In this document: in pieces, positions 4,978 to 26,403 of the stretch
Layout: each line of letters opens with the position of its first letter
Position numbering within the stretch: position 1 is the stretch's first letter
NCBI GenBank assembly: GCA_964515035.1
Contig: CAZEUO010000006.1
Coordinates: 10,103-74,102, forward strand
Direction of reading: 5' to 3'
DNA: 64,000 bases
Source of the DNA: an uncultured Planctomycetales bacterium
GTDB taxonomy: Bacteria > Omnitrophota > Gorgyraeia > Zapsychrales > CAZBRU01
The notes under the pieces: generated by a model
What the model was told of the DNA's origin: nothing
Databases searched by the model: none
Seen by the model: only the letters and a program-made list of their open reading frames with translations
Program-made: the position numbers and the translations under genes

Positions 4978-4980
4978 ATT

Positions 4981-7452: not shown

Positions 7453-7458
7453 ATAATT

Positions 7459-10596: not shown

Positions 10597-10621
10597 TGTA
10601 AGCTAGTTTCTTCCCGCAATC

Positions 10622-11119
10622 GTGGAAATTGAAATGTTTTCGAGAAAAAGAATAGAAGATTATCTTAAGAAAATTGAAAAGAGGTTTTTTATCGCTCCAC
10701 GCCAAAAGTTTAGTTTCTCCGAAAATTGGTTTCAGGAAATACCCTTGGAAGCTGGTATTTACGGTATTTTTAATCAAAATAAACTCATCTATATAGGGGA
10801 AACCGGTTCTCTTCGCGGAAGGATGCGTGATTTGGGAAGAACGGTTAATCATCAATTCCGAAGAAGTGTTGGGAAAAATATGTTCTCTCGTGTAAAAGGA
10901 TTCGAGGAAGCGAGCAGTAGAAAGAAATTTCCTCTTAACATTGAAAAAAAGCTAAATAAATGGATGGAACAAAAACTTGAAATCGCTGTTTTGCCAATTT
11001 TGTTTGGAAGAAAGGAAATTGAAGAATATATCTGTAAAGAATATAAACCAAAATGCAATACACGAGTTAAAAGGGAATGTAGAAAGATAAATGAAAATCA
11101 TCGAAATTTATCACTGTAA
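10622..11119 (+). CDS. GIY-YIG nuclease domain protein (standalone, 165 aa)
   Basis: GIYGIFNQNKLIYIGETGSLRGRMRDL matches the GIY...YIG...R core. Only a 25 nt gap follows the ATPase gene, with no terminator. Start may be GTG at 10622 or ATG at 10634. Confidence 0.6.
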   Translation: MEIEMFSRKRIEDYLKKIEKRFFIAPRQKFSFSENWFQEIPLEAGIYGIFNQNKLIYIGETGSLRGRMRDLGRTVNHQFRRSVGKNMFSRVKGFEEASSRKKFPLNIEKKLNKWMEQKLEIAVLPILFGRKEIEEYICKEYKPKCNTRVKRECRKINENHRNLSL

Positions 11120-11516
11120 TGTTAAAACTAAGCGGAAGCTGCCAATGTTTCTTTCAAGAGTTCGCGCCGGGTTTCCGTCCCCCGCAGATGATTACCTCGA
11201 CAAGAAACTGGACTTAAACGAACATCTGATTAAGCATCCCGCCGCTACTTTTTTTGTCAAAGTCAAAGGCGATTCGATGATAAAGGCGGGAATTAATTCG
11301 GGAGATATTCTGGTAGTTGATCGTTCGCTTGAACCAAAAGATAAGAAAATTGTTGTGGCGATACTAAATGGAGAGTTTACGGTCAAGCGAGTGCGAAAGA
11401 TGAAGGACAAATTATATCTGGTTTCAGAAAATGACGATTATCTGCCTATTGAAATCAAAGATGACGCGGAGTTTGAGATTTGGGGAGTAGTTGCCCATGT
11501 TATCCACTCAGTCTGA
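11091..11516 (+). CDS. umuD: UmuD (S24 LexA-like self-cleaving peptidase, TLS polymerase V accessory subunit)
   Basis: RAGFPSPADDYL...KVKGDSMIKAGINSGDILVVD aligns to the E. coli UmuD cleavage site (CG/FPSP) and the catalytic Ser (GDSM). Lys is in the C-terminal part. The full-length N-terminal arm is present if the start is 11091. Confidence 0.75.
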   Translation: MKIIEIYHCNVKTKRKLPMFLSRVRAGFPSPADDYLDKKLDLNEHLIKHPAATFFVKVKGDSMIKAGINSGDILVVDRSLEPKDKKIVVAILNGEFTVKRVRKMKDKLYLVSENDDYLPIEIKDDAEFEIWGVVAHVIHSV

Positions 11517-12810
11517 CAAAAAAGTTTTTGCCTTAGTTGACTGCAATAGTTTTTACGTTTCCTGCGAAAAAGTTTTTCATCCTTCCGTAAACAACAAGCC
11601 AGTTGTTGTGCTTTCCAATAATGACGGTTGCGCTATCTCACGCTCGAATGAAGCCAAGCGGATCGGTATTGGCATGGGTGCTCCTATATTCAAATGTCAG
11701 GATATTGTTAAACAACATGATGTGAAGGTTTTCTCAGCTAATTTTGTCCTCTATGGCGATATGTCTAATCGGGTTATGGCTGTGCTTTCGAATTTTACAC
11801 CGAATCTTGAAATCTATTCGATTGATGAAGCTTTCCTTTTATTAAACGGCTTTGAACACTTGAATCTTGAGGACTATGCACGCAAGATTAAGGGAGAGGT
11901 TAAAAAACAAACCGGAATCCCTGTCTCAATTGGTGTTGCGCCGACCAAAACTTTGGCGAAAGTTGCTAATCATTATGCCAAAGACCATCCGGAAGCAAAT
12001 GGGGTATTTACCTTAATGGATGATGATAAGATTGAGCGTATCTTGTCACAAACACCGGTTAGAGAGATTTGGGGCATCGGTAAAGAAAAGGCCATATTCT
12101 TGGAACGACACGGCATAAAAACAGCGTTTGAATTACGAAATACCAGTGATGAATGGATCAAGAAACATCTGACTATCGTTACCCTACGCACGGTTTGGGA
12201 ATTAAGAGGAACCCCGTGTTTGTCTCTGGAAAAGGTGCAACCCAATAAGAAAGCCATTGCAACAACCAGAACTTTTGGTTATGAAGTTAATTGTTTGGCG
12301 GAAATGGAAGAGGCGGTCGCGGCGTATGTCAGCCGTTCGGCAGAGAAGTTAAGAAAACAAAAATCACTGGCCAGTTACATTCAAGTGTTTATTGAGACTA
12401 ATCCTTTCAAAGACACGCCTTACTATCGGAATTCAGCCGGAACGGATGTTAATCCACCAACGGCCTACACACCAAGATTGATTGAAGTTGCTAAGGAGCT
12501 TTTAAAACGTATTTACCGAGATGGCTTACGCTATAAAAGCTGTGGAGTCTTTTTAATGAATCTTTGCCCTCAAACGAACGAACAGGATTATTTGTTTGAA
12601 GAAAAATATCAAGGAAGCTCACGAGAAAGGCTCATGCAGATTATGGATCGTTATAATCGCGGTGCTAATAGCGGAAAACTTTTTATGGCCGCTGAAGGGT
12701 TGGGTAAGCCATGGTTTATGAAACAAGCGCATAAATCCAAGCGATTCACAACACGGTGGGACGAACTGTTAACAATAAACCTTGAAAGGAATAAAAATGC
12801 CACCAAGTGA
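11491..12810 (+). CDS. umuC: UmuC / Y-family translesion DNA polymerase V catalytic subunit
   Basis: N-terminus FALVDCNSFYVSCEKVFHP...PVVVLSNNDGCAI is near-canonical UmuC. Overlaps umuD as in umuDC operons. Confidence 0.85.
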   Translation: MPMLSTQSDKKVFALVDCNSFYVSCEKVFHPSVNNKPVVVLSNNDGCAISRSNEAKRIGIGMGAPIFKCQDIVKQHDVKVFSANFVLYGDMSNRVMAVLSNFTPNLEIYSIDEAFLLLNGFEHLNLEDYARKIKGEVKKQTGIPVSIGVAPTKTLAKVANHYAKDHPEANGVFTLMDDDKIERILSQTPVREIWGIGKEKAIFLERHGIKTAFELRNTSDEWIKKHLTIVTLRTVWELRGTPCLSLEKVQPNKKAIATTRTFGYEVNCLAEMEEAVAAYVSRSAEKLRKQKSLASYIQVFIETNPFKDTPYYRNSAGTDVNPPTAYTPRLIEVAKELLKRIYRDGLRYKSCGVFLMNLCPQTNEQDYLFEEKYQGSSRERLMQIMDRYNRGANSGKLFMAAEGLGKPWFMKQAHKSKRFTTRWDELLTINLERNKNATK

Positions 12811-13126
12811 GAGGTCAATGCAAATTGCTGGAAAATTCTCTGAATATGCAAAATCTGGTGACGATGCTTTAATACAAAATTTTACGGAAAATGAAATTAA
12901 GTTAACATTAATACAATATGCGCAAGATAAGAGATTTCCTCATTACAGTGCAATGGAAATGCAATTGCAAAAACTACAAGAACAAAAAAGAGAGTTATTA
13001 AGCCAGAATGAAAGAGAAGCAGAAAGGAAAGAAGGCTATAAAAATGGATTGATTACAGGCATTATTAGCGGTGTAATTGGTGGGATTATTTTAGCTGTAA
13101 TTTTGAAATTATTGGGATTAGGATAA
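12782..13126 (+). CDS. hypothetical small protein with C-terminal transmembrane helix
   Basis: 114 aa with coiled-coil-like middle and hydrophobic C-terminus GLITGIISGVIGGIILAVILKLLGLG. No recognisable family. Confidence 0.3.
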   Translation: MKGIKMPPSERSMQIAGKFSEYAKSGDDALIQNFTENEIKLTLIQYAQDKRFPHYSAMEMQLQKLQEQKRELLSQNEREAERKEGYKNGLITGIISGVIGGIILAVILKLLGLG

Positions 13127-13128
13127 TT

Positions 13129-13791
13129 ATGTGCGGACGATATTCACAAACAAAATCCAAGCAGGATATTAAAAAGCGGTTCAATCTTAAGAAAGTCCCG
13201 GATGAAATGGGACCCCTTTTTAATATTGCGCCAGATTCAAATGTGCCAGTTATCTTAAATGAATCATCAGATGAAATAACTTTGGCAAGATGGGGGCTTG
13301 TGCCTTCATGGTCAAAAGAGGAGGAGTCACCTTATAGTATGATAAACGCAAGGGCAGAGACAATCTTAGAAAAGCCTTCCTACAAAAGGCTGATTAAAAA
13401 TAAACGCTGTTTGATCATTGCCGATTCGTTCTACGAATGGAAAAAAGTAAAAGGTAAAAAATTCCCTCACAGGATCATGCTTGAAAGCGAAGACTTATTC
13501 GCTTTTGCAGGATTATGGGATCTCTGGGAAGGAAATGGCAATTCCTTAATTAGCTGTTCCATTATTACTACGACCCCCAATAAGCTTTGTGTTACGATTC
13601 ATGACAGGATGCCAGTCATTTTGCCAAGAGAAAGAGAGAAAGACTGGCTGTCTGATATTACCGTTGAGGATGCCATTAAACTTCTTCAACCCTGCGCCGA
13701 TGGCATGAAATGCTGTGAAATTTCCTTAAAAATCAACAATCCTCAAAACAATTCTCCCGACGTGATTTTACCGTTCAAAAGCCAACCTTAA
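13129..13791 (+). CDS. SOS-response-associated peptidase (SRAP/YedK family), abasic-site DNA-protein crosslinking protein
   Basis: Begins MCGRYS (invariant Cys2 nucleophile of SRAP). About 220 aa, with the WGLVPSW motif. Confidence 0.85.
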   Translation: MCGRYSQTKSKQDIKKRFNLKKVPDEMGPLFNIAPDSNVPVILNESSDEITLARWGLVPSWSKEEESPYSMINARAETILEKPSYKRLIKNKRCLIIADSFYEWKKVKGKKFPHRIMLESEDLFAFAGLWDLWEGNGNSLISCSIITTTPNKLCVTIHDRMPVILPREREKDWLSDITVEDAIKLLQPCADGMKCCEISLKINNPQNNSPDVILPFKSQP

Positions 13792-13801: not shown

Positions 13802-13830
13802 TTGACAAAATCGATTATATTGATTATACT
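13802..13830 (+). promoter_or_regulatory. sigma70-like promoter (TTGACA-17-TATACT) upstream of the T4SS/transfer gene block
   Basis: TTGACA aaatcgattatattgat TATACT read directly. Followed by a 10-nt inverted repeat cgtaaaaatc/gatttttacg at about 13868..13910. Confidence 0.35.
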
Positions 13831-13946
13831 TCAAATGTAATTGATGAATAATCAACACTCGTTCCCCGCGTAAAAATCCCTTACCGTAGTAACCTAGCCT
13901 GATTTTTACGTTCCCTGTAGAAAAGTTCCCCCAAGGACTGCTATAC

Positions 13947-14687
13947 ATGGATCGTATCCCTCAAAAATTACTGATTCTTAAGTTTATTGTCGAACAAGGC
14001 GTTGTAACCTTAGAGGACATTAAACAATTCCTGAATATTCCCAATGATTCCGGTTCTATCCGGGTTTCTCTTTATCAGCTGGGAATCTCTCACATAAAAT
14101 ACGGAAAAATACCTCATGGTGTCTGGTATGTCAGTAATTCACAGTCTATTGAATTGCTAAGGACATATTTCAGGGAATTACCGCAATTTCCCATCCGCAG
14201 GATTCATCTCCATTTGGTCCCGCACTCTTTGGGGATGAACCGAATCCGCATTATTCTACAAAAAAGCCAAAACATAAAAGTTAGCGCGTGGTGGTCAGAA
14301 CATTATATCCGCGCCCTTACCCCGGATATGCGTTTTGGGATTTTGATGTCTAAAATCCCGGATGCTATCTTCTGGCGTGATCGTTGTAACGGAACGCAAC
14401 AAAAATTCTTTTTGGAATACGAAAGAACCTTAAAAAGTAAAGCCAGATATATGGACCTTTTTCGATATTACTCTCAACGTAACGACGTATTAAACCGTAA
14501 TGTTATTTATATTTGCGAAAACGATACGATCAAAACCGAACTGGAAAAAATTGAACAATTTTTAGTCAAGTCAGGAAGGATGGAAAGTACCGGGCTTTAT
14601 TTCCAATTTATTACTTTTGAAAAATTCTGCCTTCAATATTCAATCCAAAACCCAATTCAAAAGGAGGAAGAGGTATGCGTAAATTAA
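13947..14687 (+). CDS. hypothetical winged-helix-like protein, first gene of the transfer block; possible relaxosome/replication-relaxation-type component
   Basis: 246 aa. N-terminal region resembles wHTH. Contains the His-rich segment RRIHLHLVPH (HUH-like). No confident family assignment. Confidence 0.3.
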   Translation: MDRIPQKLLILKFIVEQGVVTLEDIKQFLNIPNDSGSIRVSLYQLGISHIKYGKIPHGVWYVSNSQSIELLRTYFRELPQFPIRRIHLHLVPHSLGMNRIRIILQKSQNIKVSAWWSEHYIRALTPDMRFGILMSKIPDAIFWRDRCNGTQQKFFLEYERTLKSKARYMDLFRYYSQRNDVLNRNVIYICENDTIKTELEKIEQFLVKSGRMESTGLYFQFITFEKFCLQYSIQNPIQKEEEVCVN

Positions 14688-14968
14688 ACAAATTGTTTAA
14701 TTCAAGGATAGGCAAGTGTTTGATGATTTTGGGTCTGTTATGTGTTTTAACCACATCTGCCTGGGCCGACCTTGAAAGCGGCATGGAAGAGCTTCAGTCA
14801 AAGATATTCAACATTTCGACGCCTTTGGCGATCATCTTCCTGATTATTGCCGCATGGCAAAAGGCAATGGGCAATGACACGCTTTTTTTCGCGTCTCTCG
14901 TGGGGACGATCATCATGTTTGCCGCGCCTCAGATTGTGCAATTCATAAGTGCGTCATTTGGAGGTTAA
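14675..14968 (+). CDS. VirB2/TrbC-like T4SS pilin
   Basis: 97 aa with signal-like N-terminus and two hydrophobic segments (LAIIFLIIAAW; LVGTIIMFAAPQIV). Sits immediately before VirB3/B4. Confidence 0.5.
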   Translation: MRKLNKLFNSRIGKCLMILGLLCVLTTSAWADLESGMEELQSKIFNISTPLAIIFLIIAAWQKAMGNDTLFFASLVGTIIMFAAPQIVQFISASFGG

Positions 14969-14971
14969 CTT

Positions 14972-17779
14972 ATGCGTAATTTCAGCGAACGATGCTTAAG
15001 GAATCTGCAAGATAGGATGATAATCCTCGGCTTTGAAGGTTGGGATATCTTTATCGTGATTGGCACAGCTTTAATTCTGCAATCCTTCCATATCCATAAT
15101 CTTGTTCTTTGGTTGACAATCGGCGCAACCGGAGGTTTCCTCTATTTTATCAAACGGGGTAAACCGCCGAATGCCACGGAACATTTTGTTGACTGGTTTT
15201 TAAAGGAAAAACGTTTTACGGCAATTCCGCAAATCATCGGCGAATCATTAAAAGGAAGGCCGTTAGATATCAAACTCAATTCATTGCAAACCTTATTGCC
15301 CTATGGGCACTTGGAAGATAACTATTTAATATTCTGCGACGATTCCCTTTCGGTCAGTTATGAAATCAGCTGTCCGCCACTGGATAATCTTTCCAATGAC
15401 GAACTAATTGCCTATTCCCAGCGTATCGAAACTTTTTTAAACAGTTTAACCGATAAGGCTACTTACCAGATTTTCTTTACTCTCGATAGCAATTATCAAA
15501 AGGAAATTGAGGAGCATAAAGCCATTAAGTCGACGCACCCCTTGATTAAGATCATGCACAGCCAAAGAATCGAGAAATTCGAAGAACTGCAAAAACAGAA
15601 AGTCTTAAGGCGAAGGCGTTGTTTTCTATTTGTTAATTACGCCGGTTCTAAGGCTAATCAGAAAAAAATAAGCCTATTAAATAAGTTTAAACAAAGCCGG
15701 AAACTGATCAATGAAGATGTCGATCTCTTGAAACGTGACCTGACCTTTATCCTTCAGCCCATCGAGGACAGCATAAAGGCGGCTGGATTTAGTTTTAAGC
15801 GGTTGTCGCAAGATGAAATCATGGCCTTGATTTACAAATATTTGAATCCGGATCGAGAGAAACAAGGTTTGCTATGCGCCAGGCTAAAGGACAGCCAAAT
15901 GTTTGGCCGGCAGGTTTGCTGTTCAGACTTATTGATAGATGAAAACAAAGGGGAATACCTGCATTTTGGCGGCTTTTACCATAAATACATTACCTTAAAA
16001 GTCCTTCCGGAAACAACCGAGCCCGGGATGTTGGCCTATCTGTCCCAACTATCTTTCTCGGAATTCGATGTGATTGTCAATTTTGAGGCACCGGCCAAAG
16101 AATGGGGGCGAAAGAAAATCGAATCCATGCGAAAGCGCGAATACGGCAACATGGTCGGCCTCTTTAATATCGTCAATAAAGACGCCCAAACAAAAGTCGC
16201 CCAGTATGAAACGCTTCTTGAGGAAACCCAACAAAATAATCAAAAACTTTTCCGTATGCAGCTGACTCTGCATGTTTACGGTGAGGAAATGGAGGATGTT
16301 AAGAAAAAGACTGTTGAAGTTATCCGTATATTTTCCAGCCTTAACGGCGCGGAAATGCATGATGAACGCTGGGGCGCGGTTAAACCGATATTTCTAGGGA
16401 CCTTGCCCGGATGGACCAAAGAATCATCGAGGTGGTTATTGTTGAAATCCCTTCATTTGGCGGATTTTTTGCCGTTTTTCTCCGAATTTAAAGGGAGCGG
16501 ATCGGCACAATGCCTATTCTTTAATACAACTCAAGGCTTGGCCTCTTATGATCCGTTTTCGGAGGAATTGACCGCTTTTAATACCGTAGTTGTAGGCGCA
16601 TCGGGGAGCGGAAAAAGCTTCACCATCAATCAAATTATCAATCAATACAGCAAAAACGACCCCGTGGAAATATTTATCGATATTGGTGGTTCATACAAGC
16701 GTCAAGTCATCTTAAAAAACGGCGAGTATATCAACTTAGGCCTAAAAGAGAAATTCACCATCAATCTTTTTGATTTATCAAAGAATAAGCGGTTTAGAGA
16801 TTTTAACGAAGAGGAACAAAACGAAATCCTTATCATTAAGACCAAAACCATTGCCCAAATGATGGGTGGGCTGGCTCGATTTAAAGAATCCGACCAAATA
16901 GTGGAAGATTTTATCTTTCGAAGCGTTGCCTTTCTGTATGAAAGAGTTGACTATCCCATCTTAAGCGATCTTAAGGAAGTTTTGAAATCCGTATCCCAAA
17001 ACAACAAACAATTACAGCCGTTTCTTGAGCCGGTTATCGGGTTGTTGGGAATCTGGTTTAAAGGCGGGCAGTATGGCAATTACACCGATGGCCCTTCGAC
17101 AATATCCTTAGATAACAGCGTTATTTGTTTTGATTTAAAAGGCCTTAGTCAATTCGAAAGGCTTCAGGCGGTCATGCTGACTATCGTAACAAACTTTATT
17201 TGGGGAAAAATCATGAGTGAGCCCGGGCGCCGCAAATTCGTTATTTTCGATGAGTGCTGGAAACTACTTAGTACCCCGGAAGCGGCCACTTTTATCGCCG
17301 AATGCTACCGAACCTTTCGAAAATACGGCGCAGGGGCCATTTCGGTCACTCAATCTTTAAGCGACTTTTTGGGATGCGGCTTGGAAGATGCCATACTGGG
17401 CAATTCCAATACGCGATTTATTCTGCGCCAAAATTCTGCTCCCACGGTTGAACAGATTATTAAATACTTCAACTTTAATGAACAGGAGAGAAGGCTTGTT
17501 GAATCTCTACAGATTAAAAAAGGTGAGTATTCGGAAGTCTTTTTCTCGCAATCCAAGGAGTTAAAAAACATCAGCGCCAAGATGGTGATCTGGCCTACGC
17601 CGATTGAATATTGGGTTGCGACAACCGATTCGAGAGATTTGGGCCATTATGAAAATACCAGACAGCGGTTTCCGAAACTGAACTTGTACGAATCATTACA
17701 AAAATGCGCAAAAGAATTTCCGCATGGTGTTGGAAATTCAACATTCATTCAAGAAGGGGGGCCAAATGCGTTCATTTAA
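14972..17779 (+). CDS. virB4: VirB3::VirB4 fusion, T4SS ATPase (TrbE/CagE family)
   Basis: N-terminal two-TM VirB3-like segment. Walker A VVVGASGSGKSF. Walker B FVIFDECWKLL. 935 aa. Confidence 0.85.
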   Translation: MRNFSERCLRNLQDRMIILGFEGWDIFIVIGTALILQSFHIHNLVLWLTIGATGGFLYFIKRGKPPNATEHFVDWFLKEKRFTAIPQIIGESLKGRPLDIKLNSLQTLLPYGHLEDNYLIFCDDSLSVSYEISCPPLDNLSNDELIAYSQRIETFLNSLTDKATYQIFFTLDSNYQKEIEEHKAIKSTHPLIKIMHSQRIEKFEELQKQKVLRRRRCFLFVNYAGSKANQKKISLLNKFKQSRKLINEDVDLLKRDLTFILQPIEDSIKAAGFSFKRLSQDEIMALIYKYLNPDREKQGLLCARLKDSQMFGRQVCCSDLLIDENKGEYLHFGGFYHKYITLKVLPETTEPGMLAYLSQLSFSEFDVIVNFEAPAKEWGRKKIESMRKREYGNMVGLFNIVNKDAQTKVAQYETLLEETQQNNQKLFRMQLTLHVYGEEMEDVKKKTVEVIRIFSSLNGAEMHDERWGAVKPIFLGTLPGWTKESSRWLLLKSLHLADFLPFFSEFKGSGSAQCLFFNTTQGLASYDPFSEELTAFNTVVVGASGSGKSFTINQIINQYSKNDPVEIFIDIGGSYKRQVILKNGEYINLGLKEKFTINLFDLSKNKRFRDFNEEEQNEILIIKTKTIAQMMGGLARFKESDQIVEDFIFRSVAFLYERVDYPILSDLKEVLKSVSQNNKQLQPFLEPVIGLLGIWFKGGQYGNYTDGPSTISLDNSVICFDLKGLSQFERLQAVMLTIVTNFIWGKIMSEPGRRKFVIFDECWKLLSTPEAATFIAECYRTFRKYGAGAISVTQSLSDFLGCGLEDAILGNSNTRFILRQNSAPTVEQIIKYFNFNEQERRLVESLQIKKGEYSEVFFSQSKELKNISAKMVIWPTPIEYWVATTDSRDLGHYENTRQRFPKLNLYESLQKCAKEFPHGVGNSTFIQEGGPNAFI

Positions 17780-18173
17780 ATATTTGTTATTAGCCTTAAT
17801 ACTTCCGGTACTTATTGGTTGTGCTAACAAACTGGCTTACGTTTCAACCGGAAGCCTCATTGGAGCCGGGGGCGGGTATGCCATTGACCGTGACAGCAAG
17901 GACGCTGCTATTGGCGGGTTAGTTGGGGGAACGACCGGAGCCATACTAGCAGACATCCATAAAAAAAGTGAAAATAAAAAGTACCAAGATGGTTACGATC
18001 AAGGGTATACCCAAGCCCAGCTTGAAATTGCTAAAAGTAACTGGGATGAAAATACCGGCAAACAAAAGAAGGATGTTACTTCAAAATCTTATGAGCGGAT
18101 TAAAATCCCTAAAAAAGAAGTCAATGATGTGCTCTATGATTCGCATTATGAAACGCTGGAGGTGTACAAATGA
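17766..18173 (+). CDS. lipoprotein with glycine-zipper motif (possible VirB7-like / T4SS-associated)
   Basis: Lipobox LIGC after signal peptide. GSLIGAGGGYAID...GGLVGGTTGAILA glycine zipper. The upstream ORF start (17724) overlaps virB4, so the 17766 ATG is preferred. Confidence 0.45.
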   Translation: MRSFKYLLLALILPVLIGCANKLAYVSTGSLIGAGGGYAIDRDSKDAAIGGLVGGTTGAILADIHKKSENKKYQDGYDQGYTQAQLEIAKSNWDENTGKQKKDVTSKSYERIKIPKKEVNDVLYDSHYETLEVYK

Positions 18174-18895
18174 AAAAACTTATGGTTTTTGCGATTATTC
18201 TCATGTTGAGCCCGCGGCCTGCGTGGGCTGATTCGACCTGGGCGGTCTTACAGCAAACCAGCATCCAGACAGCTGAGCATCTAAAAAGGGTTCAGGAAGC
18301 GATTAAGATGGTTCAGCTGCTTCAAACCCAGGTTCACGATGTCCAGGATCTTCTTAAATTGGCAGTCAGGGCCAGTGAAGGCTTGGAGGGCGTTGAGTTT
18401 ATAAGCGATTTCAGGAACCTGGCGATTGAAACCAACGACCTGATTGGAGAAATTCGAGAGTATATCGAATATGACAAACCCATTGGAGAAGAATGGCTGA
18501 ATCTCTTTGGAAAAATCGGGAACTGGATCGAAGACTCAAATGAAATCTTTAAAAATATTAAAATGTCCGATTCGGTCAATGCCAGAAGTTTTAATATTGC
18601 CGATAGCTACCATGACAAATATCAGGAAAATTCAGAATACGCTGAGCAATTAGTTGCGAATTCGAAAACAGTCAATGAAAAAGGCGCGTTAAAACAGATA
18701 GCGGAAGAGATGGGCCACCTCATGCAGATGCAAAATCAAGAAATTTATTTACTCTCCGAGATCCTCAGATCGCAAAGTGTCGAATACTCCAACGAAAATC
18801 TGAAGCGCAAGGAAGATGCCATCAAATTTGAGCAGGAAAATAAAGGGATAAAGCGTTTTATAAGCATGTCAATCGACGACCAATTCGAGTTATAG
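18170..18895 (+). CDS. secreted alpha-helical protein, VirB5/TrbJ-like candidate
   Basis: Signal peptide MKKLMVFAIILMLSPRPAWA. Coiled-coil-rich. Position matches VirB5 between B4 and B6. Confidence 0.35.
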   Translation: MKKLMVFAIILMLSPRPAWADSTWAVLQQTSIQTAEHLKRVQEAIKMVQLLQTQVHDVQDLLKLAVRASEGLEGVEFISDFRNLAIETNDLIGEIREYIEYDKPIGEEWLNLFGKIGNWIEDSNEIFKNIKMSDSVNARSFNIADSYHDKYQENSEYAEQLVANSKTVNEKGALKQIAEEMGHLMQMQNQEIYLLSEILRSQSVEYSNENLKRKEDAIKFEQENKGIKRFISMSIDDQFEL

Positions 18896-18899
18896 AGCT

Positions 18900-19913
18900 A
18901 TGGACTTTGTTATTAGCATTGTCAAAAGTGATTTATGGGGAATAATCCATACTGGACGCTATTTGTTGAGTGGCCTTTTCCTTTTTGCGGTATTTGTTCA
19001 TTTCCTGGGCATACTCGCTCATCAAACAAGCTGGTCGTCCTTACTGATGCGATTGGTGATCGGCTTTATATTGCTTCAAAACTATGTTTGGATCATGGAC
19101 ACGACCAAAGATATTGTCGTAGGCTTAGATAAAACGATTACCCCGCAACAGGACTTTTCCAAACAGTATGCCGAGATGTCTGAAAATTTAAGGGTGGAAT
19201 ATGAGCAAAATGTCCAACAGAGTATCACTGAACGAATTCTAAACTTTGGTAAAAACACGATCCACAGTTTGGTGGTAAACTTTTCGTTTATTTTTTATGC
19301 CATAGTTTCTCGTATTATGGAGGCTATTCGTTACTCGATTGCGGGTATTTTGTATAAATTGGGGCCGATTTTAATTCCTTTAATCCTATTCAATTCGACA
19401 AAGCGTGTTTTGGGCGGTTGGTTCACCAGCTATATTTGCGTGCTGTCTTGGCCGATTTTATGGCATATCACGTTGTCGATTGCCGTTGCCATAAGCGAAC
19501 GTTTTGGCATAACCGGAGATGGGATCGAATATTTCGTTGCCATTAATTTTGCGGTGGGTTTTGTCCTGATATTTTCACCGATGATTATTACGAGTTTGGC
19601 TGCCGGTATCGGCGCGGGGGCAGCGGCTTCGCTTGCTGGGGCGTTTGCGACAAAAACATTCTTAGATAGATTTCAGCAAGCCGGGCGTATAGGAGCGGCG
19701 GGAGTGACAGGCGCGGTAAGCACTGGCATAAGAACTGTTCAAAGCATTTCTCAGGCCATTCCGGTTAACGCATTGTTAAGCGAAAGGTTTAAAAATATCA
19801 TGTCCTTTGCCGGAAAGCCTAAAGCGGATACTCCGGGACACGATATTAAATCATCCGGCAAAAACCCTTTTGATTCAATCAATAAAGCAATGAAAGGAAA
19901 GAAAGATGAGTGA
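18900..19913 (+). CDS. VirB6/TrbL-like polytopic inner-membrane T4SS protein
   Basis: Multiple TM helices and a Gly/Ala-rich C-terminal segment. Correct synteny position. Confidence 0.5.
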   Translation: MDFVISIVKSDLWGIIHTGRYLLSGLFLFAVFVHFLGILAHQTSWSSLLMRLVIGFILLQNYVWIMDTTKDIVVGLDKTITPQQDFSKQYAEMSENLRVEYEQNVQQSITERILNFGKNTIHSLVVNFSFIFYAIVSRIMEAIRYSIAGILYKLGPILIPLILFNSTKRVLGGWFTSYICVLSWPILWHITLSIAVAISERFGITGDGIEYFVAINFAVGFVLIFSPMIITSLAAGIGAGAAASLAGAFATKTFLDRFQQAGRIGAAGVTGAVSTGIRTVQSISQAIPVNALLSERFKNIMSFAGKPKADTPGHDIKSSGKNPFDSINKAMKGKKDE

Positions 19914-20502
19914 GCTTGCCTTTAACCGAATTATTCTGGAAAAAAATAACTATGTTTTATCCGTCCTGGCCGTTATTTCCTTATCGATTAATTTGTTTTT
20001 AACCACGATGCTGGCTTTTTCGATCAATAAAAAGCCACTTATGGTTTATGAGGATTCGGGACAGGTGATTTCTCTTAACAATCGAGAATTTAAATTAGAC
20101 GAAAAGATTTTGGAAGGGTTCGTCCATTTGATTACCAAAGAATACTTAAGTTTTAGCCCGTCCTCATTGCCGGTGCAAATTGAGGCGATAAAGCATTATC
20201 TAACGGACAGCCCAAGAAACGCGATTCTTGATTCCTATAAAAAGAATGAGAAGAAAATTCAGGAAGAGAATGTTTTTCAACAATTTACCGTTCAAGAAAT
20301 TAAAATCACCAAAAAAAACAGTCCGTATTTAGTCGAAGTTGATGGCATAAAAACGGTTTACGCCAATGGCAACAGCAAAAATATTGCCGCGACTTATGCA
20401 TTGGAAATCGAACGGATCAAGCAGGCACAAGATAATCCTTATGGATTAATTGTTTCAAAGATTATTGAGAAACCACAACAACTAACGGAGAGCCGGAAAT
20501 GA
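19906..20502 (+). CDS. VirB8-like bitopic T4SS protein
   Basis: N-terminal TM (VLSVLAVISLSINLFLTTMLAF) followed by about 150 aa periplasmic domain. Synteny. Confidence 0.45.
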   Translation: MSELAFNRIILEKNNYVLSVLAVISLSINLFLTTMLAFSINKKPLMVYEDSGQVISLNNREFKLDEKILEGFVHLITKEYLSFSPSSLPVQIEAIKHYLTDSPRNAILDSYKKNEKKIQEENVFQQFTVQEIKITKKNSPYLVEVDGIKTVYANGNSKNIAATYALEIERIKQAQDNPYGLIVSKIIEKPQQLTESRK

Positions 20503-21311
20503 AATATATAATCATATTGTTAATTTTGCTTACCGCAGAGCCGGTTTTTGCGCTTGATGGAACAAACAGGTATTTGAGCCCTAATAAAGTCATTTATGAA
20601 GACCCTCAAGAAGATGATGTCCTCATCATCAATACAACCGTTGGTTACACAACCGTGTTGGAATTTCCCGAAAAACCCGCAATGGTATCAACCGGCGACA
20701 GCTCTCTTTTGCAAATCGAAGTGCCAAAGAATTCAAAGAGTGTCCTGTTAAAAGCCTTAAGAGACGAAGGGGAGACTAATCTCTTTGTTTTCACGCCAAG
20801 CCAGCGGTTTAATTACAAGGTCTTTATCGGCAATCAGCAGGATGTTGATTATGTCATTGATGTTCAGAAAGAATCTCTAAACAAGAAGAATCGACCTGCA
20901 CAAATTCCGATAACCCAGCTTGTAAAAATGGCACAAAACTACCGGGTTTTACGCGATTCCAAACAAATCAATGACCGGATATTCATTCAAAAGGACATAT
21001 TTACTCAATATGAGAATCCGTTCGTAAAGCTGAAAGTTATCGAAGCCTTTGCCAATAAAGCCCCTCACTATCTGGTTTTGCATTTTGTTATTTCAAATAA
21101 GCAATTAATACCTATAAACTTAAACGAGAAAATAACCAGTGTGTATGTTAACGGCCAAAAGTTTCAGCCAAATTATGTTTTGTTTGATTCCGAGAGGCTG
21201 AATGCAAAACAGGAAACGGATGCTTGGGTCATACTGGAAGGAACTCATATTTCCCTAAACAATCACTTTTCTATCGGGGTAGGTGTCTATGATAAAGAAC
21301 ATATCTTTTAA
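20499..21311 (+). CDS. VirB9/TrbG/CagX-like T4SS outer-membrane core protein
   Basis: Signal peptide and beta-rich sequence. Overlapping start/stop with neighbours (translational coupling). Confidence 0.5.
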   Translation: MKYIIILLILLTAEPVFALDGTNRYLSPNKVIYEDPQEDDVLIINTTVGYTTVLEFPEKPAMVSTGDSSLLQIEVPKNSKSVLLKALRDEGETNLFVFTPSQRFNYKVFIGNQQDVDYVIDVQKESLNKKNRPAQIPITQLVKMAQNYRVLRDSKQINDRIFIQKDIFTQYENPFVKLKVIEAFANKAPHYLVLHFVISNKQLIPINLNEKITSVYVNGQKFQPNYVLFDSERLNAKQETDAWVILEGTHISLNNHFSIGVGVYDKEHIF

Positions 21312-22206
21312 AAATTTATTTTTTAGGCAGGATCATACCGGAAGACGGCAGCCGACAATCCTGACTTGGGTATTGGTCTGCATGACAGTTTTCGGCTCAT
21401 TCTTTTTATCGAAGGGAAAAGGCAAAGTCCGGAAGAAGGAAGCAAAGCAGGACATTATCAAAGAAAAAGATATTGTTGCGGCCTCAAATACACCAACGAA
21501 AAAGGATGAAAATACGATCGATTTGTCCAAGATTTTAGAAATTGCCAGAGAAGAAGGAAAGAATAAGGCGTCGAGAATCAAAGGAAAAATAGATTCAAAA
21601 ATGATTGTTTTTGACGGGACCAACGATTACCGTTCTGATCAAATCGCCCCTCTGGGGAGCATGGTCAAATGTATTCTTGCGCATAATATCGTAACCAACA
21701 ATTTTAGTTCACCGGTCATTGTCCAGGTTTGGGAAGATTTTTATTTTAACGGAAAATTACTTTTCCCGTTTGGAACCAGAATATATGGCACCGCCAGGGC
21801 GGGCAAAGAAAGAGACCGGGTGCTTGTTACTTTTCATACGGCGGTATTTCAGGACGGTAGAGAAGTCAAGCTGAATGCCATTGGATTAAGCCAAGACGGT
21901 TCCGGCGGCTTAACCGGTCAACTTGTTAGAAAGGAAAACAAGAAAAGAATACTTCTAATGGCGATGAATTTCATAAGCGGTATAGCGCTGGGGTTGCAGG
22001 AAACAGCTACCAATGCCGTTACCGGATTATCACAAATTACGACCAATTCACGCAACGCCACATTAGAAGGAGTATCCAATACTTTTGAAAACGAAGCGCG
22101 CCGGCTTGAAAAAGAAATCGATGCCGCTGAAGGGTACGCTATTGTTTTGGCAGGGAACCAATTGATAGTTTATTTTGAGAAATCAACGGATGTAAAACCG
22201 CTTTAA
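21283..22206 (+). CDS. VirB10/TrbI-like T4SS core protein
   Basis: N-terminal TM (ILTWVLVCMTVFGSFFL), low-complexity linker and C-terminal beta domain. Synteny after VirB9. Confidence 0.5.
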   Translation: MSMIKNISFKNLFFRQDHTGRRQPTILTWVLVCMTVFGSFFLSKGKGKVRKKEAKQDIIKEKDIVAASNTPTKKDENTIDLSKILEIAREEGKNKASRIKGKIDSKMIVFDGTNDYRSDQIAPLGSMVKCILAHNIVTNNFSSPVIVQVWEDFYFNGKLLFPFGTRIYGTARAGKERDRVLVTFHTAVFQDGREVKLNAIGLSQDGSGGLTGQLVRKENKKRILLMAMNFISGIALGLQETATNAVTGLSQITTNSRNATLEGVSNTFENEARRLEKEIDAAEGYAIVLAGNQLIVYFEKSTDVKPL

Positions 22207-22220
22207 GGGAGGATAAATCA

Positions 22221-22502
22221 ATGCGAACGATAGCGCTACTAACCGCGTGTATTTTATTTTCTGGATGTGCGACTTATGGTTCATTGCCGTTTATAAAAGC
22301 AACGGATCAACAGCCGTCTGTAGAAACTGAAACCGTATGGGTAAACGCAAAAACAAAGAAGATTTGGATTAATCCGCATGTCGATGACGAAGGCAATATG
22401 GTCGAAGGGCATTATAAATTTATTGTTTTGGAGAAAGGCCATTGGGCCTTACAGGAAATTGCTCCGGAAAACACAATTACGAATAAATCGGAAGGCAAAT
22501 GA
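22221..22502 (+). CDS. small lipoprotein (possible VirB7-like)
   Basis: Lipobox LFSGC. 93 aa. Located between VirB10 and VirD4. Confidence 0.4.
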   Translation: MRTIALLTACILFSGCATYGSLPFIKATDQQPSVETETVWVNAKTKKIWINPHVDDEGNMVEGHYKFIVLEKGHWALQEIAPENTITNKSEGK

Positions 22503-24211
22503 ACGACAAGATTGTCCTTATCATCTTGGTCTTAATTTTGGGGTATTACCATTACCGGGAATTTATTTCTGAGGAGTTGAACAATCCCTTATTTTACGGG
22601 GCGCTGATTATTTTCTTTTTCCTTATATTATTTGTCGGCCACTATTTCGAGAAATTTCAAAACAAATTAAGTATGTGGCGTCAGGGAATAAGGTTTAACC
22701 CAGACTCAAATCCAATACTTTACCCATTCCGTAAATACAATATTAAAGATTTTTTGGACAGATTCTATGCCATAGAAAGCAATAAGGAGCATACCTTTAT
22801 CGGATTAAATGCTGAAAAGTCGAATAAAGAAGACGTTTTTATTCCGGACATACAGCGCAGCCAGCATTTGCAGGTTTTGGGAATGACCGGGACCGGAAAG
22901 ACTTCAGGCATATTTCTGCCTTTGATTTATCAGGATGCTCTTAAGAAACGCCCGATTATTATTTTAGACGCGAAAGGAGAGATGCACACCGTTAACCAAC
23001 TCAACTCTATTTTTCATTCAATTGGGCGCAGCGACGATTTTCTATTATTTTCGCTTTCCCATAAAGATATTTCTTGTAGTTATAACCCTTTATACGTTGG
23101 GGAATGCGATCCCCAAGTTGTCATTGATGCATTTTTTAATAATTTTAAAGATGAAAATACATTTTATCGTGAAACATCAAAAACGATTTTCACGAATACA
23201 TTTTATATTCTTCATTCGTTAGAAAAGCCATTTACCCCGATGGATGTTTACACCTATTTGACAAATCTAAAATGCCGCTTGGAAATCAATAAACAAATTA
23301 AGCAAAACGAAAAAGGGTTCATTTATTTGAAGCTTCTTAATACCCTTATCGAAAGGCTTACTGACCAATATAAGGGTTGGGAGCATGTTATAACCGGCTT
23401 TAACAATTATCTGTTAAATCATCGGGCTGATCTTTTAAACGTAGATGACAGCGATATTATTCTTACAGATGTCATCCGGGAGAGAAAAATCGTCTATTTT
23501 CAACTCCCGACGAATGCTTATCCCATCCAAGCTGTTAGCATCGCAAAAATGGTACAGGCCAATTTGCGCTACATATCATCACTGATCCAGGTAGGCTTGA
23601 TTCCTAAAGATATTTTAGTCAGCGTCATCATCGATGAATACGGCTCATTTGCCGAAGAAACATTTGTTGAGGTGTTAAATAAGGCCAGAACCAGCGGGAT
23701 GATGGTTACCCTCTCGCACCAAAGTTTGAGTGACTTAAGAATGATTTCGGAAACCTTCATGAAACGCATAGATGAGAATACCCTGAACAAATTATATCTC
23801 AAACAGACAGATCCGGAACTCTGTGAACTGATTGCCAAAAGCATGGGGACCTATATCAAAGAAGAAAAGACCTACCGGATGGTAGGCGGAAATTTTGGTA
23901 ACCAAGTCCATAACGGCGAATCATCAAATCGCCTGGTTAATGAATTCCATTTTCCACCGGACAAGATCAAGAATTTACACAAATTCGGACAAGGTTATTT
24001 TGTATACCGTGGCAATAATACTCATAAATGCGTTAATTTCGGAAAATTCGATAACATTCAAGAAATTCCCTATATCAAGAAAACAAAAAGTAACAAGCGT
24101 GAGGGGTTAAGGCTCTTTGAAAAATATTACTTGGCCAATTCGCTGGAAGAAAAGACACGCAAACCTAAAATGGCGATGGCTTCTAAAGGCCTCATCGAAT
24201 GTGATGATTAA
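22499..24211 (+). CDS. virD4: VirD4/TraG-type conjugative coupling ATPase (T4CP)
   Basis: Two N-terminal TM helices. Walker A LGMTGTGKTSG. Walker B VSVIIDEYGSF. 570 aa. Confidence 0.8.
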   Translation: MNDKIVLIILVLILGYYHYREFISEELNNPLFYGALIIFFFLILFVGHYFEKFQNKLSMWRQGIRFNPDSNPILYPFRKYNIKDFLDRFYAIESNKEHTFIGLNAEKSNKEDVFIPDIQRSQHLQVLGMTGTGKTSGIFLPLIYQDALKKRPIIILDAKGEMHTVNQLNSIFHSIGRSDDFLLFSLSHKDISCSYNPLYVGECDPQVVIDAFFNNFKDENTFYRETSKTIFTNTFYILHSLEKPFTPMDVYTYLTNLKCRLEINKQIKQNEKGFIYLKLLNTLIERLTDQYKGWEHVITGFNNYLLNHRADLLNVDDSDIILTDVIRERKIVYFQLPTNAYPIQAVSIAKMVQANLRYISSLIQVGLIPKDILVSVIIDEYGSFAEETFVEVLNKARTSGMMVTLSHQSLSDLRMISETFMKRIDENTLNKLYLKQTDPELCELIAKSMGTYIKEEKTYRMVGGNFGNQVHNGESSNRLVNEFHFPPDKIKNLHKFGQGYFVYRGNNTHKCVNFGKFDNIQEIPYIKKTKSNKREGLRLFEKYYLANSLEEKTRKPKMAMASKGLIECDD

Positions 24212-24225: not shown

Positions 24226-24780
24226 ATGGCAAATAAAAAAGAAAAAAACAGATCGGCAGAAATCATCCCGCAAGAACGCATTGAAAATAGAATTTTACTC
24301 ATCAGAAGCAAGAAAGTCATGCTCGATAGTGACCTTGCGGAATTATATAAAGTAGCGACTGGCCAATTGAAGAGGGCTGTTAATCGCAACATAAATAGGT
24401 TTCCCGAAGACTTTATGTTTGAACTCACCAAAGAAGAAGCCCAAGCTTTGAGATGCCAATTTGGCATCTCAAAGAAAGGACGAGGCGGCCAACGATATTT
24501 ACAATATGTTTTCACCCAAGAAGGTGTCGCGATGCTTTCCAGTGTTCTTAACAGCGAGAGGGCTATTGGTGTGAATATTCAGATTATGCGTGCTTTTGTA
24601 AGGTTGCGCGAACTTATGATTTCTCATAAAGATTTAGCCCGCAAACTTGATGATTTAGAATTGAAATTTAAAGAACATGATAAGAGTATTTTGTTAATTT
24701 TTAGGGCAATAAAAGAATTGCTTCAAAAGCCGAAAGAACCGGAGAAGCCGAAGCTTGGCATTGGCTTTCATGTCAGGTAA
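24226..24780 (+). CDS. ORF6N-domain protein (KilA-N related, phage antirepressor/Rha-like DNA-binding)
   Basis: RILLIRSKKVMLDSDLAELYKVATGQLKRAVNRNINRFPEDFMFELTKEE is the typical ORF6N N-terminal domain. Confidence 0.6.
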   Translation: MANKKEKNRSAEIIPQERIENRILLIRSKKVMLDSDLAELYKVATGQLKRAVNRNINRFPEDFMFELTKEEAQALRCQFGISKKGRGGQRYLQYVFTQEGVAMLSSVLNSERAIGVNIQIMRAFVRLRELMISHKDLARKLDDLELKFKEHDKSILLIFRAIKELLQKPKEPEKPKLGIGFHVR

Positions 24781-25010: not shown

Positions 25011-26210
25011 GTGGCTATGGCTGTTTTCAATCGTGTCTATTGTCCTAATTGTAAGAAAGAGCACAACATCTATGGGGATGACATCAAAGAGTTAAATTGC
25101 GGCCGTTGTGGGTATCCTGTAAAAATAAACCCTAAAGAAGGTAATTTTTTTATTGAGTATTATGCCAAAGGAAAGCGGAAACGGGAGAAAATTGGGCCGA
25201 ACAGAACACTGGCCGAAATAGTCCTCAAAAAACGAAAGGTCGAAATCGCCGAAAAGAAATTTCTCGATATCAAAGAGGAAAAAAGAATTAAATTTGAAGA
25301 TTTTGCCGATGAATATTTGGAACTCCACGCCAAGGTCAATAACAGGTCCTGGAAAAAGGCCGATGCCGTAAACATCAGGCTTCTTAAAAAAGTTTTTTCG
25401 GGAAAGTGCCTTAACGAAATTACGCCGCTGATGATTGATCGATTTAAGGCAGAAAGGGCAAAAAGTCTAAAAGGCGAAAAGAAAACAAAAACAATTTCCC
25501 CTGCTACGGTGAATCGAAATTTAGCTTGCCTGAAAAGCATGTTTAATAAAGCGATTGCCTGGGGTCAGTTTGTCGGAGAAAACCCTGTCCGGCAGGTAAA
25601 ACTTTTTAAGGAGAATAATAAAAGGCTGCGGTTTTTGGAGAAGGAGGAGATTGTCCGGCTATTGGCCAATTGCAATAAACACCTGAAAGCGATTGTTATC
25701 CTTGCCCTGCATACAGGCATGAGGCGGGGAGAAATATTAAATCTTAAGTGGCGCGATATCGATATCAAGCGCGGGGTCATTTATTTGTACAATACCAAGA
25801 ATAGCGAGAAAAGGGAAATCCCTATTAATGAACAGGTGAAAACTGCGCTTATCAGAACACTCAAGCATCCAAAAAGCGAATATATTTTTACTAAAAAAGA
25901 CGGGTCACCCATAGGTGACATTAAGAAATCTTTCTATGCAGCTGTGAAGAAATCTGGTATAATCACGCTTCGTTTTCATGATTTGAGACATACCTTTGCC
26001 TCCCATTTGGTTATGAGTGGAGTTGATTTGAACACAGTAAGAGAATTGATGGGCCACAAGTCGTTGCAAATGACACTTAGATATTCACATTTGTCGCCTG
26101 ACCATAAGAAGCGGGCAGTGGATACCTTGGGTAAGAGAATGGACACATTTTGGACACCAGAGCTAAAAACACTTATTGCAATAAAAGACCAAGTCCCTAT
26201 AACCACTTAA
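25011..26210 (+). CDS. int: tyrosine site-specific integrase with N-terminal CxxC..CxxC zinc-ribbon
   Basis: C-terminal HDLRHTFASHLVMSGVDLNTVRELMGHKSLQMTLRYSHL gives the R..H..R..Y catalytic box. N-terminus CPNCKK..CGRCGYP. Ends 22 nt before tRNA-Met. Confidence 0.9.
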   Translation: MAMAVFNRVYCPNCKKEHNIYGDDIKELNCGRCGYPVKINPKEGNFFIEYYAKGKRKREKIGPNRTLAEIVLKKRKVEIAEKKFLDIKEEKRIKFEDFADEYLELHAKVNNRSWKKADAVNIRLLKKVFSGKCLNEITPLMIDRFKAERAKSLKGEKKTKTISPATVNRNLACLKSMFNKAIAWGQFVGENPVRQVKLFKENNKRLRFLEKEEIVRLLANCNKHLKAIVILALHTGMRRGEILNLKWRDIDIKRGVIYLYNTKNSEKREIPINEQVKTALIRTLKHPKSEYIFTKKDGSPIGDIKKSFYAAVKKSGIITLRFHDLRHTFASHLVMSGVDLNTVRELMGHKSLQMTLRYSHLSPDHKKRAVDTLGKRMDTFWTPELKTLIAIKDQVPITT

Positions 26211-26232
26211 GATTATTAGTGTTATAATTTTC

Positions 26233-26306
26233 GGGCCCATAGCTCAGGCGGTTAGAGCAACTGACTCATAATCAGTGGGTCGGAGGTTCGAGCCCTCCTG
26301 GGCCCA
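26233..26306 (+). tRNA. tRNA-Met (anticodon CAT; elongator or Ile2-type), CCA not encoded; integration target
   Basis: Cloverleaf folded by hand. Acceptor GGGCCCA/TGGGCCC. Anticodon loop CTCATAA. T-loop TTCGAGC. Confidence 0.85.
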
Positions 26307-26403
26307 GTGAACTGGTGATGAACGAGATGTTCAAAAGGTTCTCCCGCCTTTTCCACCACTAGCGTTTAGAAGAAGGGCGGGACCCCGCCGTTGTCCGGCG
26401 GGG

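Follow-up and report, generated by a model that had tools for sequence, protein, structure and literature searches.

The locus described here raises the question of what kind of conjugation system, if any, is encoded by a run of tightly spaced genes among which VirB11 is not recognized. It lies in a 64,000-nucleotide (nt) stretch of the chromosome of a Candidatus Omnitrophota bacterium (contig CAZEUO010000006.1; the whole stretch is referred to below as the window). The genes at 14675-24211 had been read in an earlier note, from the letters alone, as a streamlined type IV secretion system (T4SS). Here, the region from ~13.8 to 26.3 kb is interpreted, with a probability of roughly 0.78, as the transfer-and-integration module of an integrative and conjugative element (ICE) carried in that chromosome. 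An integrase, a candidate relaxase, a type IV coupling protein (T4CP) and a mating-pair formation (MPF) system containing VirB4 were found together in one integrated island of low G+C content (GC) that ends at a tRNA-Met gene. The transfer unit extends beyond the ten genes located at 14675-24211, with the candidate relaxase gene before them and an ORF6N-domain gene, a tyrosine integrase gene and tRNA-Met after them.

Forty-four close homologues of the VirB4 protein were found, and every source naming an organism was Omnitrophota. The Omnitrophota homologues, from metagenome-assembled genomes (MAGs), show 48-81% identity, after which identity falls sharply to ~30% in Bdellovibrionota. About 25 Omnitrophota loci were colinear and intact, in the order 246-amino-acid (aa) protein, pilin, VirB3::VirB4, lipoprotein, 241-aa protein, VirB6, TraE, VirB9, VirB10, TraV, T4CP, optionally ORF6N, and integrase. 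The cargo upstream of the module is unrelated between loci and includes PAS-LuxR regulators, metal resistance and restriction-modification (R-M) genes. Because a fixed order from relaxase to integrase stands beside variable cargo, the conserved part is taken to be the transfer module of an ICE. Two copies of the module were present in each of five MAGs.

The GC of the window is 0.35-0.43 up to ~26 kb and 0.45 beyond. The last gene of the element encodes a tyrosine integrase (25011..26210 on the + strand, which carries all island features given below; Phage_integrase, 2.2e-40), and T4CP followed by integrase was also found in most Omnitrophota loci reaching that far. Between these two genes of the window lies that of an ORF6N-domain protein (24226..24780; PF10543, 2.5e-32), possibly a regulator and equally placed in loci L009 and L022. 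The right border of the low-GC island is formed by tRNA-Met(CAT) at 26233..26306, detected by ARAGORN and Rfam, 22 nt past the integrase stop. In loci L008, L009, L022 and L025, tRNA genes were found 30-136 nt past the integrase, with the identities Ala, Thr, Lys and Ser. Across loci, the integrase stop is situated 22-136 nt 5′ of the 5′ end of a tRNA (Met, Ala, Thr, Lys or Ser) on the same strand and, therefore, the element lies on the 5′ side of the tRNA and not on the usual 3′ side. A 21-nt segment comprising the end of tRNA-Met and its trailer (26290-26310) is repeated with 90% identity at 26404-26424, 114 nt downstream, where it is preceded by a GC-rich hairpin (26376-26389). This repeat could have been left by an old attachment site (att) or could be a tRNA-like relic located between tRNA-Met and tRNA-Val.

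Almost all transcription of the window is carried by the + strand, and a check of open reading frames (ORFs) located ten of them at 14675-24211, with coordinates as the earlier note had them. They encode, in order, a VirB2-like pilin, a TraL/VirB3::VirB4 fusion, a glycine-zipper lipoprotein, a VirB5 candidate, VirB6, TraE/VirB8, a VirB9-like protein, VirB10/TrbI, a TraV-like lipoprotein and VirD4/TraD. The last 13 nt of the 246-aa gene (13947-14687) lie within the pilin gene; next come a 3-nt gap between pilin and VirB4 and a 14-nt overlap between VirB4 and the glycine-zipper lipoprotein, the start of which was set at the Met at 17766 by the gene caller. Overlaps of 4 nt were found between this lipoprotein and the 241-aa gene, between TraE and VirB9, and between TraV and T4CP; VirB6 and TraE overlap by 8 nt and VirB9 and VirB10 by 23-29 nt. 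Gaps are limited to 4 nt between the 241-aa gene and VirB6 and 14 nt between VirB10 and TraV. These junctions bear out the claim of a mating-pore operon with closely spaced genes, the sole ATPases of which were indeed found to be VirB4 and the coupling protein.

Components were assigned by Pfam and NCBIfam scans, in which scores were compared with gathering scores and curated cut-offs, respectively. The 97-aa VirB2/TrbC-type pilin (14675..14968) has a long leader and two hydrophobic segments and matches PF04956 at 5.3e-5; its TrbC score of 23.8 is below the gathering score of 27.9, while a Bdellovibrionota orthologue scores above it (35.7), and the family hidden Markov model (HMM) of the pilin matches Bdellovibrionota orthologues at 1e-8 to 7e-13. 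The 935-aa protein that follows consists of a TraL/VirB3-like N-terminal domain (residues 1-105; 14972..15286) and a VirB4/TraC ATPase domain (15287..17779) with the Walker A motif GASGSGKS. The latter matches P-loop_TraG at 9e-35 and TraC_F_IV at 1.4e-15, with 120.5 and 57.6 bits, both above the Pfam gathering scores.

In 18 Bdellovibrionota loci, free-standing ORFs of 104-140 aa (mostly 104-122) directly 5′ of a ~800-aa VirB4 match the HMM of residues 1-105 at 1e-8 to 2e-17. Among the 18 aligned members of the VirB3 domain, in which a conserved K-x-G-K-P motif (KRGKP in the window) comes after a hydrophobic hairpin, 17 match PF07178 TraL (best 1.3e-6) and 14 weakly match DUF3487, which we take to be the PFL_4702 TraL-like family. 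All full-length Omnitrophota VirB4 homologues measure about 906-951 aa. In view of the free-standing ORFs, the TraL matches and these lengths, the VirB3::VirB4 fusion proposed from the letters is real and, judged from the homologues, fixed throughout the clade of Omnitrophota proteins. MPF_T systems with a fusion of this kind had been described before (PMC4027160). In locus L026 (10001-12756), VirB4 is split into ORFs of 394 and 538 aa, possibly a frameshift or pseudogene, and in locus L020 a 745-aa ORF lies between VirB4 and the lipoprotein gene (from 12790 onward).

The glycine-zipper lipoprotein (135 aa, 17766..18173, gene call in L002; longest ORF from 17724, 149 aa) carries an LIGC lipobox and weakly matches Gly-zipper models of Pfam. 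Its position is kept in 22 Omnitrophota loci, it is absent from the Bdellovibrionota loci, and it possibly has a VirB7-like role. The next gene (18170..18895) encodes a secreted, all-helical 241-aa protein, considered a VirB5-like candidate because its gene lies between those of VirB4 and VirB6 and because it shows weak homology. The window protein gave no match in Pfam or in a profile search of the PDB, and an AlphaFold model from 35 sequences reached a predicted local distance difference test score (pLDDT) of 46, too low for use. DUF4141 is matched by 2 of its 35 homologues (1.9e-6), and orthologues of 230 aa occupy the identical position in Bdellovibrionota loci. Conjugative transposons of Bacteroides have their DUF4141 proteins encoded between traG and traJ, a position from which we infer that they may correspond to TraI; the latter is treated as VirB5-like (PMC4027160).

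VirB6/TrbL is represented by a polytopic inner-membrane protein of 337 aa (18900..19913; PF04610, 2.9e-5), with a TrbL score of 24.4 under the gathering score of 25.9; its family HMM matches R388 TrwI at 5.5e-5. A bitopic TraE (VirB8-type) protein of 198 aa (19906..20502) passes the gathering score of PF05309 (27.5 bits vs 24.8) and matches TIGR02761 at 2.7e-6. The VirB9/TraK-like secreted protein (270 aa, 20499..21311) is recognizable in its N-terminal domain alone, by matches to CagX (7.6e-7; 29.6 bits, below the gathering score of 34.2), T2SS-T3SS_pil_N (2e-4) and TIGR02781 VirB9 (5.9e-9), and its family HMM matches R388 TrwF at 5.1e-5. A short version of VirB9 (125-158 aa) is found in some Omnitrophota and all Bdellovibrionota loci. 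In the subclade of loci L014-L018, L021, L024 and L026, VirB9 is short or undetected and TraV is undetected. VirB10/TraB (307 aa, 21283..22206) has an N-terminal membrane anchor and a TrbI domain (PF03743, 6.5e-18, 65.7 bits vs gathering 35), and its family HMM matches F TraB at 4.6e-9. It is followed by a 93-aa TraV-like outer-membrane lipoprotein (22221..22502) with an FSGC lipobox (PF09676, 26.9 bits vs gathering 21; TIGR02747, 1.6e-5). Finally, the VirD4/TraD-type T4CP (570 aa, 22499..24211) has two N-terminal transmembrane segments and the Walker A motif GMTGTGKT, and scores above gathering for TraG-D_C (2.6e-9, 37.5 bits vs 22) and T4SS-DNA_transf (2.1e-5, 24.0 vs 20.1); it also matches the NCBIfam models TIGR03743 SXT_TraD (5.5e-25) and TIGR03754 (1.5e-20).

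In short, the gene list of the earlier note holds, with additions. Of the components it had assigned weakly, VirB6, VirB8/TraE, VirB9 and VirB10 were supported by the family scans, and the VirB5 call remains weak, the window protein being unmatched. Both lipoproteins, the 246-aa gene upstream and the integrase/tRNA context had been overlooked, and the affinities described there as VirB-like are best matched instead by the F/G-type families TraL, TraC, TraE, TraV and TraB.

The 246-aa protein (13947..14687), encoded by the first gene of the conserved module, combines an N-terminal, MarR/ArsR-like winged helix with a PD-(D/E)XK nuclease domain. A confident structural model predicts winged-helix and restriction/nicking-endonuclease folds, and residues E118, D139, E157, E159 and K163 of the nuclease domain are invariant in the family. 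Replic_Relax (PF13814) is matched at E ≤0.01 by 16 of 38 family members (best 2e-7), and one homologue is named a replication-relaxation family protein by NCBI. PF13814 is the Pfam counterpart of the MOB_C relaxase superfamily of CONJscan (PMC5357655), and MOB_C relaxases, typified by pAD1 TraX, are PD-(D/E)XK enzymes (PMC12857230). With pAD1 TraX and CloDF13 MobC, the window protein would share the PD-(D/E)XK fold joined to a DNA-binding domain, similarity to PF13814 and a location next to a VirD4-type coupling protein and T4SS. It is very divergent from them, scoring slightly under gathering and matching no solved structure in a sequence-profile search of the PDB. On a Thermus plasmid with a related VirB4, an annotated replication-relaxation gene adjoins VirB2/3/4, and on Myxococcus pYRE the 246-aa family HMM matches a 240-aa ORF adjoining the T4CP (3e-4). 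We take the protein to be the relaxase with moderate confidence, and it is referred to as the candidate relaxase.

The strongest competing explanation is that the 246-aa protein is merely a regulator or defence nuclease, the relaxase being unrecognised or supplied in trans. The locus would then be an ICE that has its own pore and is otherwise incomplete. The MarR/ArsR-like winged helix, the Pfam score under gathering and the Bdellovibrionota loci, where this protein is replaced by a different winged-helix protein (296-324 aa) and an FtsK-type ATPase, all favour such a role. It is nevertheless considered unlikely, given the strict linkage of the gene to the pilin gene with its 13-nt overlap in 23 loci, the acidic and lysine residues conserved in the nuclease domain, the equivalence of Replic_Relax and MOB_C, and the related proteins that accompany related VirB4 genes on the Thermus and Myxococcus plasmids.

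The sole sizeable noncoding gap 5′ of the module is occupied by a promoter-like site and an inverted repeat (13802..13855), a candidate operon promoter/operator. The promoter-like site (TTGACA-17-TATACT, 13802-13830, + strand, 11/12) was the top hit of a scan that, overall, was not enriched over shuffles. It is overlapped by a 15-nt inverted repeat at 13820-13855, and a second inverted repeat is found at 13869-13910.

The mechanism proposed for the ICE takes its parts from the sequence and its steps from established T4SS biology. The integrase would excise the element, and the MOB_C-like 246-aa protein would bind and nick an origin of transfer (oriT). The VirD4/TraD-type coupling protein would then pass the DNA to a diderm type IV secretion channel. 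The inner-membrane platform of this channel would consist of TraL/VirB3::VirB4, VirB6 and TraE/VirB8, and its F/G-like outer core of the VirB9/TraK-like protein, VirB10/TraB, the TraV lipoprotein and the glycine-zipper lipoprotein. A VirB2-type pilus is probable, possibly with a VirB5-like tip protein. Power would come from two ATPases only, VirB4 and the coupling protein, like in the F system.

Several points weigh against the ICE interpretation. All evidence is computational and was obtained from MAGs. An attL/attR pair was not found by blastn-short of the integrase-tRNA junction against 1-25 kb and L001 or by a direct-repeat scan, and the island may extend leftward past the end of the window. 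No oriT was found, the inverted repeats 5′ of 13947 not being conserved across 23 loci. The Replic_Relax score of the 246-aa window protein is 24.5 bits against a gathering score of 25.3, and MOB_C enzymes are themselves poorly understood, no covalent intermediate with DNA having been seen for them (PMC12857230). VirB5 is the weakest of the component calls, the glycine-zipper lipoprotein is also weakly assigned, and no peptidoglycan hydrolase was found on the island. Regarding the border, a copy of the tRNA sequence was found neither leftward within the window nor in the 925 nt beyond it (L001), and the sole att candidate is a 10-nt repeat, GTGTTATAAT, at 1792-1801 and 26219-26228.

All four competing explanations were scored low, mainly because of the strict integrase linkage, the variable cargo and the exact gene set kept in many intact loci. 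One of them holds that the T4SS is not conjugative and that putatively predatory or episymbiotic Omnitrophota and Bdellovibrionota use it to deliver effectors or DNA in attacks on their prey or hosts. It would fit a VirB4 clade common to both phyla, the more distant relative on a plasmid of Myxococcus, which also belongs to a predatory lineage, and the lack of a canonical HUH relaxase. The module, however, is always integrase-linked, usually beside a tRNA, is found in several copies per genome with variable cargo and, in the window, is located on a low-GC island; it encodes a coupling protein and a MOB_C-like nuclease, and no effector-like genes are conserved with it. A delivery device is thus considered very improbable.

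Marginally less probable still is decay: the cluster would be what is left, no longer functional, of a larger F- or VirB-type system from which VirB11, VirB1 and accessory genes had disappeared. Its small gene set, the several components under family thresholds and occasional disrupted copies (the split VirB4 of L026 and the 745-aa insertion of L020) would be expected of decay. Against this, identical gene set and order with intact ORFs were found in ~25 loci at 48-81% VirB4 identity, which requires that purifying selection act on this exact composition, and translationally coupled junctions are retained.

The absence of VirB11 and VirB1, as claimed in the earlier note, was borne out for the island and for ~50 related loci. 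Among island ORFs of at least 90 aa, Pfam scans gave no match to T2SSE or SLT, and a six-frame search of 1-26.3 kb with R388 TrwD, R388 VirB1 and R64 TraJ gave none either. In ~50 related loci, covering 10 kb on each side of VirB4, no real homologue of TrwD or TraJ was found; two marginal P-loop matches (E ~0.004) correspond to FtsK-type ATPases of two Bdellovibrionota loci. Given these Pfam, six-frame and related-locus results, the absence of VirB11 is real. Other VirB11 candidates were rejected: in the related loci, upstream ORFs of ~280-420 aa encode PAS-LuxR regulators, metal-resistance proteins or products of unknown kind, ORFs with a Walker A motif are FtsK-, HerA- or PHP-type proteins, and a 324-aa ORF of Bdellovibrionota is a winged-helix protein. 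F plasmid TraF, TraH, TraN, TraU, TraW and TrbC had no match at E ≤0.01 when compared by phmmer with all six-frame ORFs of the window, Pfam scans of island ORFs gave no corresponding match, and none of these F-specific genes was found in related loci.

The sole VirB11-superfamily matches in the window are two PilB/GspE-type ATPases of ~570 aa with MshEN domains at 57123-60562. That these, acting in trans, or a VirB11 carried by the element past its undefined left border provide a third ATPase is the least likely explanation of all, as the two ATPases belong to a pilus/type II secretion system (T2SS) cluster that also encodes PilC and a prepilin, has the GC of the host and lies 31 kb past the tRNA border, TrwD/TraJ homologues are missing from the related loci as well, and F-type systems need no VirB11. 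The chromosomal cluster (57123-62936) comprises the two ATPase genes in tandem (58853-60562 and 57123-58850), a stand-alone MshEN gene (60696-61151), PilC/GspF (61221-62429) and the prepilin (62466-62936), and is preceded by a gene for a HAMP-GAF-GGDEF protein (55224-56651).

The earlier note had further regarded the lack of VirB11 beside retained VirB9/VirB10-type proteins as an uncommon combination, which the literature contradicts. According to Guglielmini et al. 2014 (PMC4027160), VirB11 is rare outside MPF_T (19%), and core proteins of the VirB9/VirB10 type belong to MPF_F, G, B and C. F, for its part, is a working system that has no VirB11 (PMC12857230).

Against curated models, the window VirB4 falls under every subfamily cut-off. 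The best NCBIfam model is the F-type TraC model TIGR02746 (239.5 bits vs cut-off 567.05), and PRK13721 scored 89.6 against 1177. T-type models ranged overall from 28 to 178 bits against cut-offs of 643-1050 (TIGR00929, 178 vs 643.1; TrbE NF010447, 104 vs 1020; VirB4 PRK13853, 28 vs 957). The B-type model TIGR03783 scored 77 against 261.55. For the MPF_B set as a whole, the TraJ model TIGR03782 scored 21.6 against 289.95, and likeness to MPF_B (CTnDOT type) is limited to weak Transposon_TraM and DUF4141 similarities. The G-type model TIGR03744 (PFL_4706 family) scored 46 against 520.6, the weak DUF3487 matches being the sole hint of MPF_G. Of the F core set, TraE, TraV and TrbI (TraB domain) are above Pfam gathering, and TraL is weak and consistent (17 of 18 members). 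The TraK model of Pfam is unmatched, with similarity to the VirB9/CagX N-terminal domain instead.

In a rough neighbour-joining tree of VirB4 with references for the F, B, T and I classes (MPF_G and MPF_C left out), Omnitrophota and Bdellovibrionota form a clade with 100% bootstrap support. This clade stands outside F TraC and Methylomonas TraC, Bacteroides TraG, R388 TrwK and R64 TraU, with deep nodes at 2-53%, so the tree cannot place it. The best plasmid matches are the VirB4 proteins of Myxococcus stipitatus pYRE (L053, 26%) and a Thermus sp. plasmid (L058, 24%). Both VirB4 genes lie within T4SS-like clusters of mostly "hypothetical" annotations, and the MOB-suite label of each plasmid is non-mobilizable, a hint that current typing misses conjugative systems. 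The expectation that the lineage, Candidatus Omnitrophota, is poorly sampled is confirmed by these cut-offs and by such labels on its two closest plasmid relatives (~24-26% VirB4 identity).

With MPF_F (F plasmid Tra) and MPF_G (ICEHin1056 Tfc), the window system shares the lack of VirB11, homologues of TraL, TraC, TraE, TraB (TrbI) and TraV, and an outer core that would be of the TraK/TraB/TraV type; its T4CP is nearest the SXT/TOL TraD families. It differs from F in size (~10 genes spread over 9.5 kb here, 37 annotated features within 33 kb for F) and in the lack of TraF, H, N, U and W, TrbC and the TraG C-terminal domain, so that the proteins by which F assembles its pilus and stabilises mating pairs are absent. 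Moreover, its VirB4 scores under half of the family cut-off and, over 403 aa, has 23.6% identity to F TraC, the TraL and TraC parts are fused, the gene order is of the VirB type, a VirB2/TrbC-type pilin and a candidate VirB5 are present, and the relaxase candidate is MOB_C-like, not MOBF or MOBH.

The order B2-B3-B4-(B5)-B6-B8-B9-B10-D4 is shared with MPF_T (Agrobacterium tumefaciens VirB/D4 and R388 Trw) and conforms to the rule virB2-B3-B4 ... B8-B9-B10 (PMC3548315). Compact size is also shared, some MPF_T systems have VirB3-VirB4 fusions, and family HMMs of the window match TrwI, TrwF and TrwB. Unlike MPF_T, the island lacks VirB11 and VirB1 and encodes proteins of the TraE and TraV types where MPF_T has those of the VirB8 and VirB7 types. 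From these comparisons, the system is best described as pared-down F/G-like content in VirB gene order.

The sister VirB4 clade comprises the uncharacterised ICE-borne T4SS of Bdellovibrionota (L029-L051). They share with the window the order of pilin, VirB3, 230-aa protein, VirB6, TraE-like protein, VirB9 N-domain, VirB10 and TraV-like protein, as well as the terminal integrase and the lack of VirB11. They differ in that VirB3 is a separate gene, VirB4 identity is ~30%, and both the Replic_Relax protein and the glycine-zipper lipoprotein are lacking. In place of a VirD4-type coupling protein, Bdellovibrionota loci carry an FtsK/SpoIIIE-type ATPase of 462-490 aa (PF01580, 7e-19; e.g. L033:15810-17228), and an HTH_17 gene lies 5′ of the integrase. 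Replacement of VirD4 by TcpA is described in PMC4027160 for a subclass of MPF_FA only. As a tentative and rather doubtful proposal, the Omnitrophota and Bdellovibrionota systems might together represent a distinct, unnamed diderm MPF class missed by typing tools. Such a class would lack VirB11, VirB1 and the F accessory genes and would consist of a minimal set of ~10 genes in VirB order, with an F/G-like core of the TraK/TraB/TraV kind. Its partners would be small MOB_C-like PD-(D/E)XK relaxases in Omnitrophota and, in Bdellovibrionota, coupling ATPases of the FtsK type.

The Omnitrophota, abundant nanobacteria most of which have not been cultured, have mobile elements that are almost undescribed, and no published description of an ICE/T4SS family of this type was found in the Omnitrophota literature. 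What is new here is this family, VirB11-less systems and VirB3-VirB4 fusions being known already. A conserved compact ICE family would suggest that classical conjugation operates in the phylum, and its module of 12-13 genes is a natural vehicle for future genetic tools. The system offers a naturally minimal diderm T4SS, with two ATPases, fused VirB3-VirB4 and a TraV/TraB/VirB9-like core, that bridges F/G-type content and VirB-type organisation and is linked to a tiny MOB_C-like candidate relaxase. As NCBIfam cut-offs were not reached and MOB-suite returned non-mobilizable calls, surveys of conjugative elements probably undercount this lineage.

The cargo part of the island (1817..13791) was annotated using Pfam, with an HTH_17 gene taken from the gene call in L001. 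It comprises a type III R-M system (Res, 2011-4977; Mod, 4981-7452), the gene pair of which is overlapped by the HTH_17 gene, an SMC/AAA_21 ATPase of 1045 aa followed by a GIY-YIG nuclease (7459-11119), UmuD/UmuC (11091-12810) and an SRAP (abasic-site) protein (13129-13791). The cargo thus mostly concerns defence and DNA-damage functions, with UmuD-UmuC and SRAP directly 5′ of the transfer operon. Just past the island, a bacterial class A RNase P RNA (143.6 bits, 27678-28090) starts within the 3′ end of an RNase H-like ORF (27286-27744).

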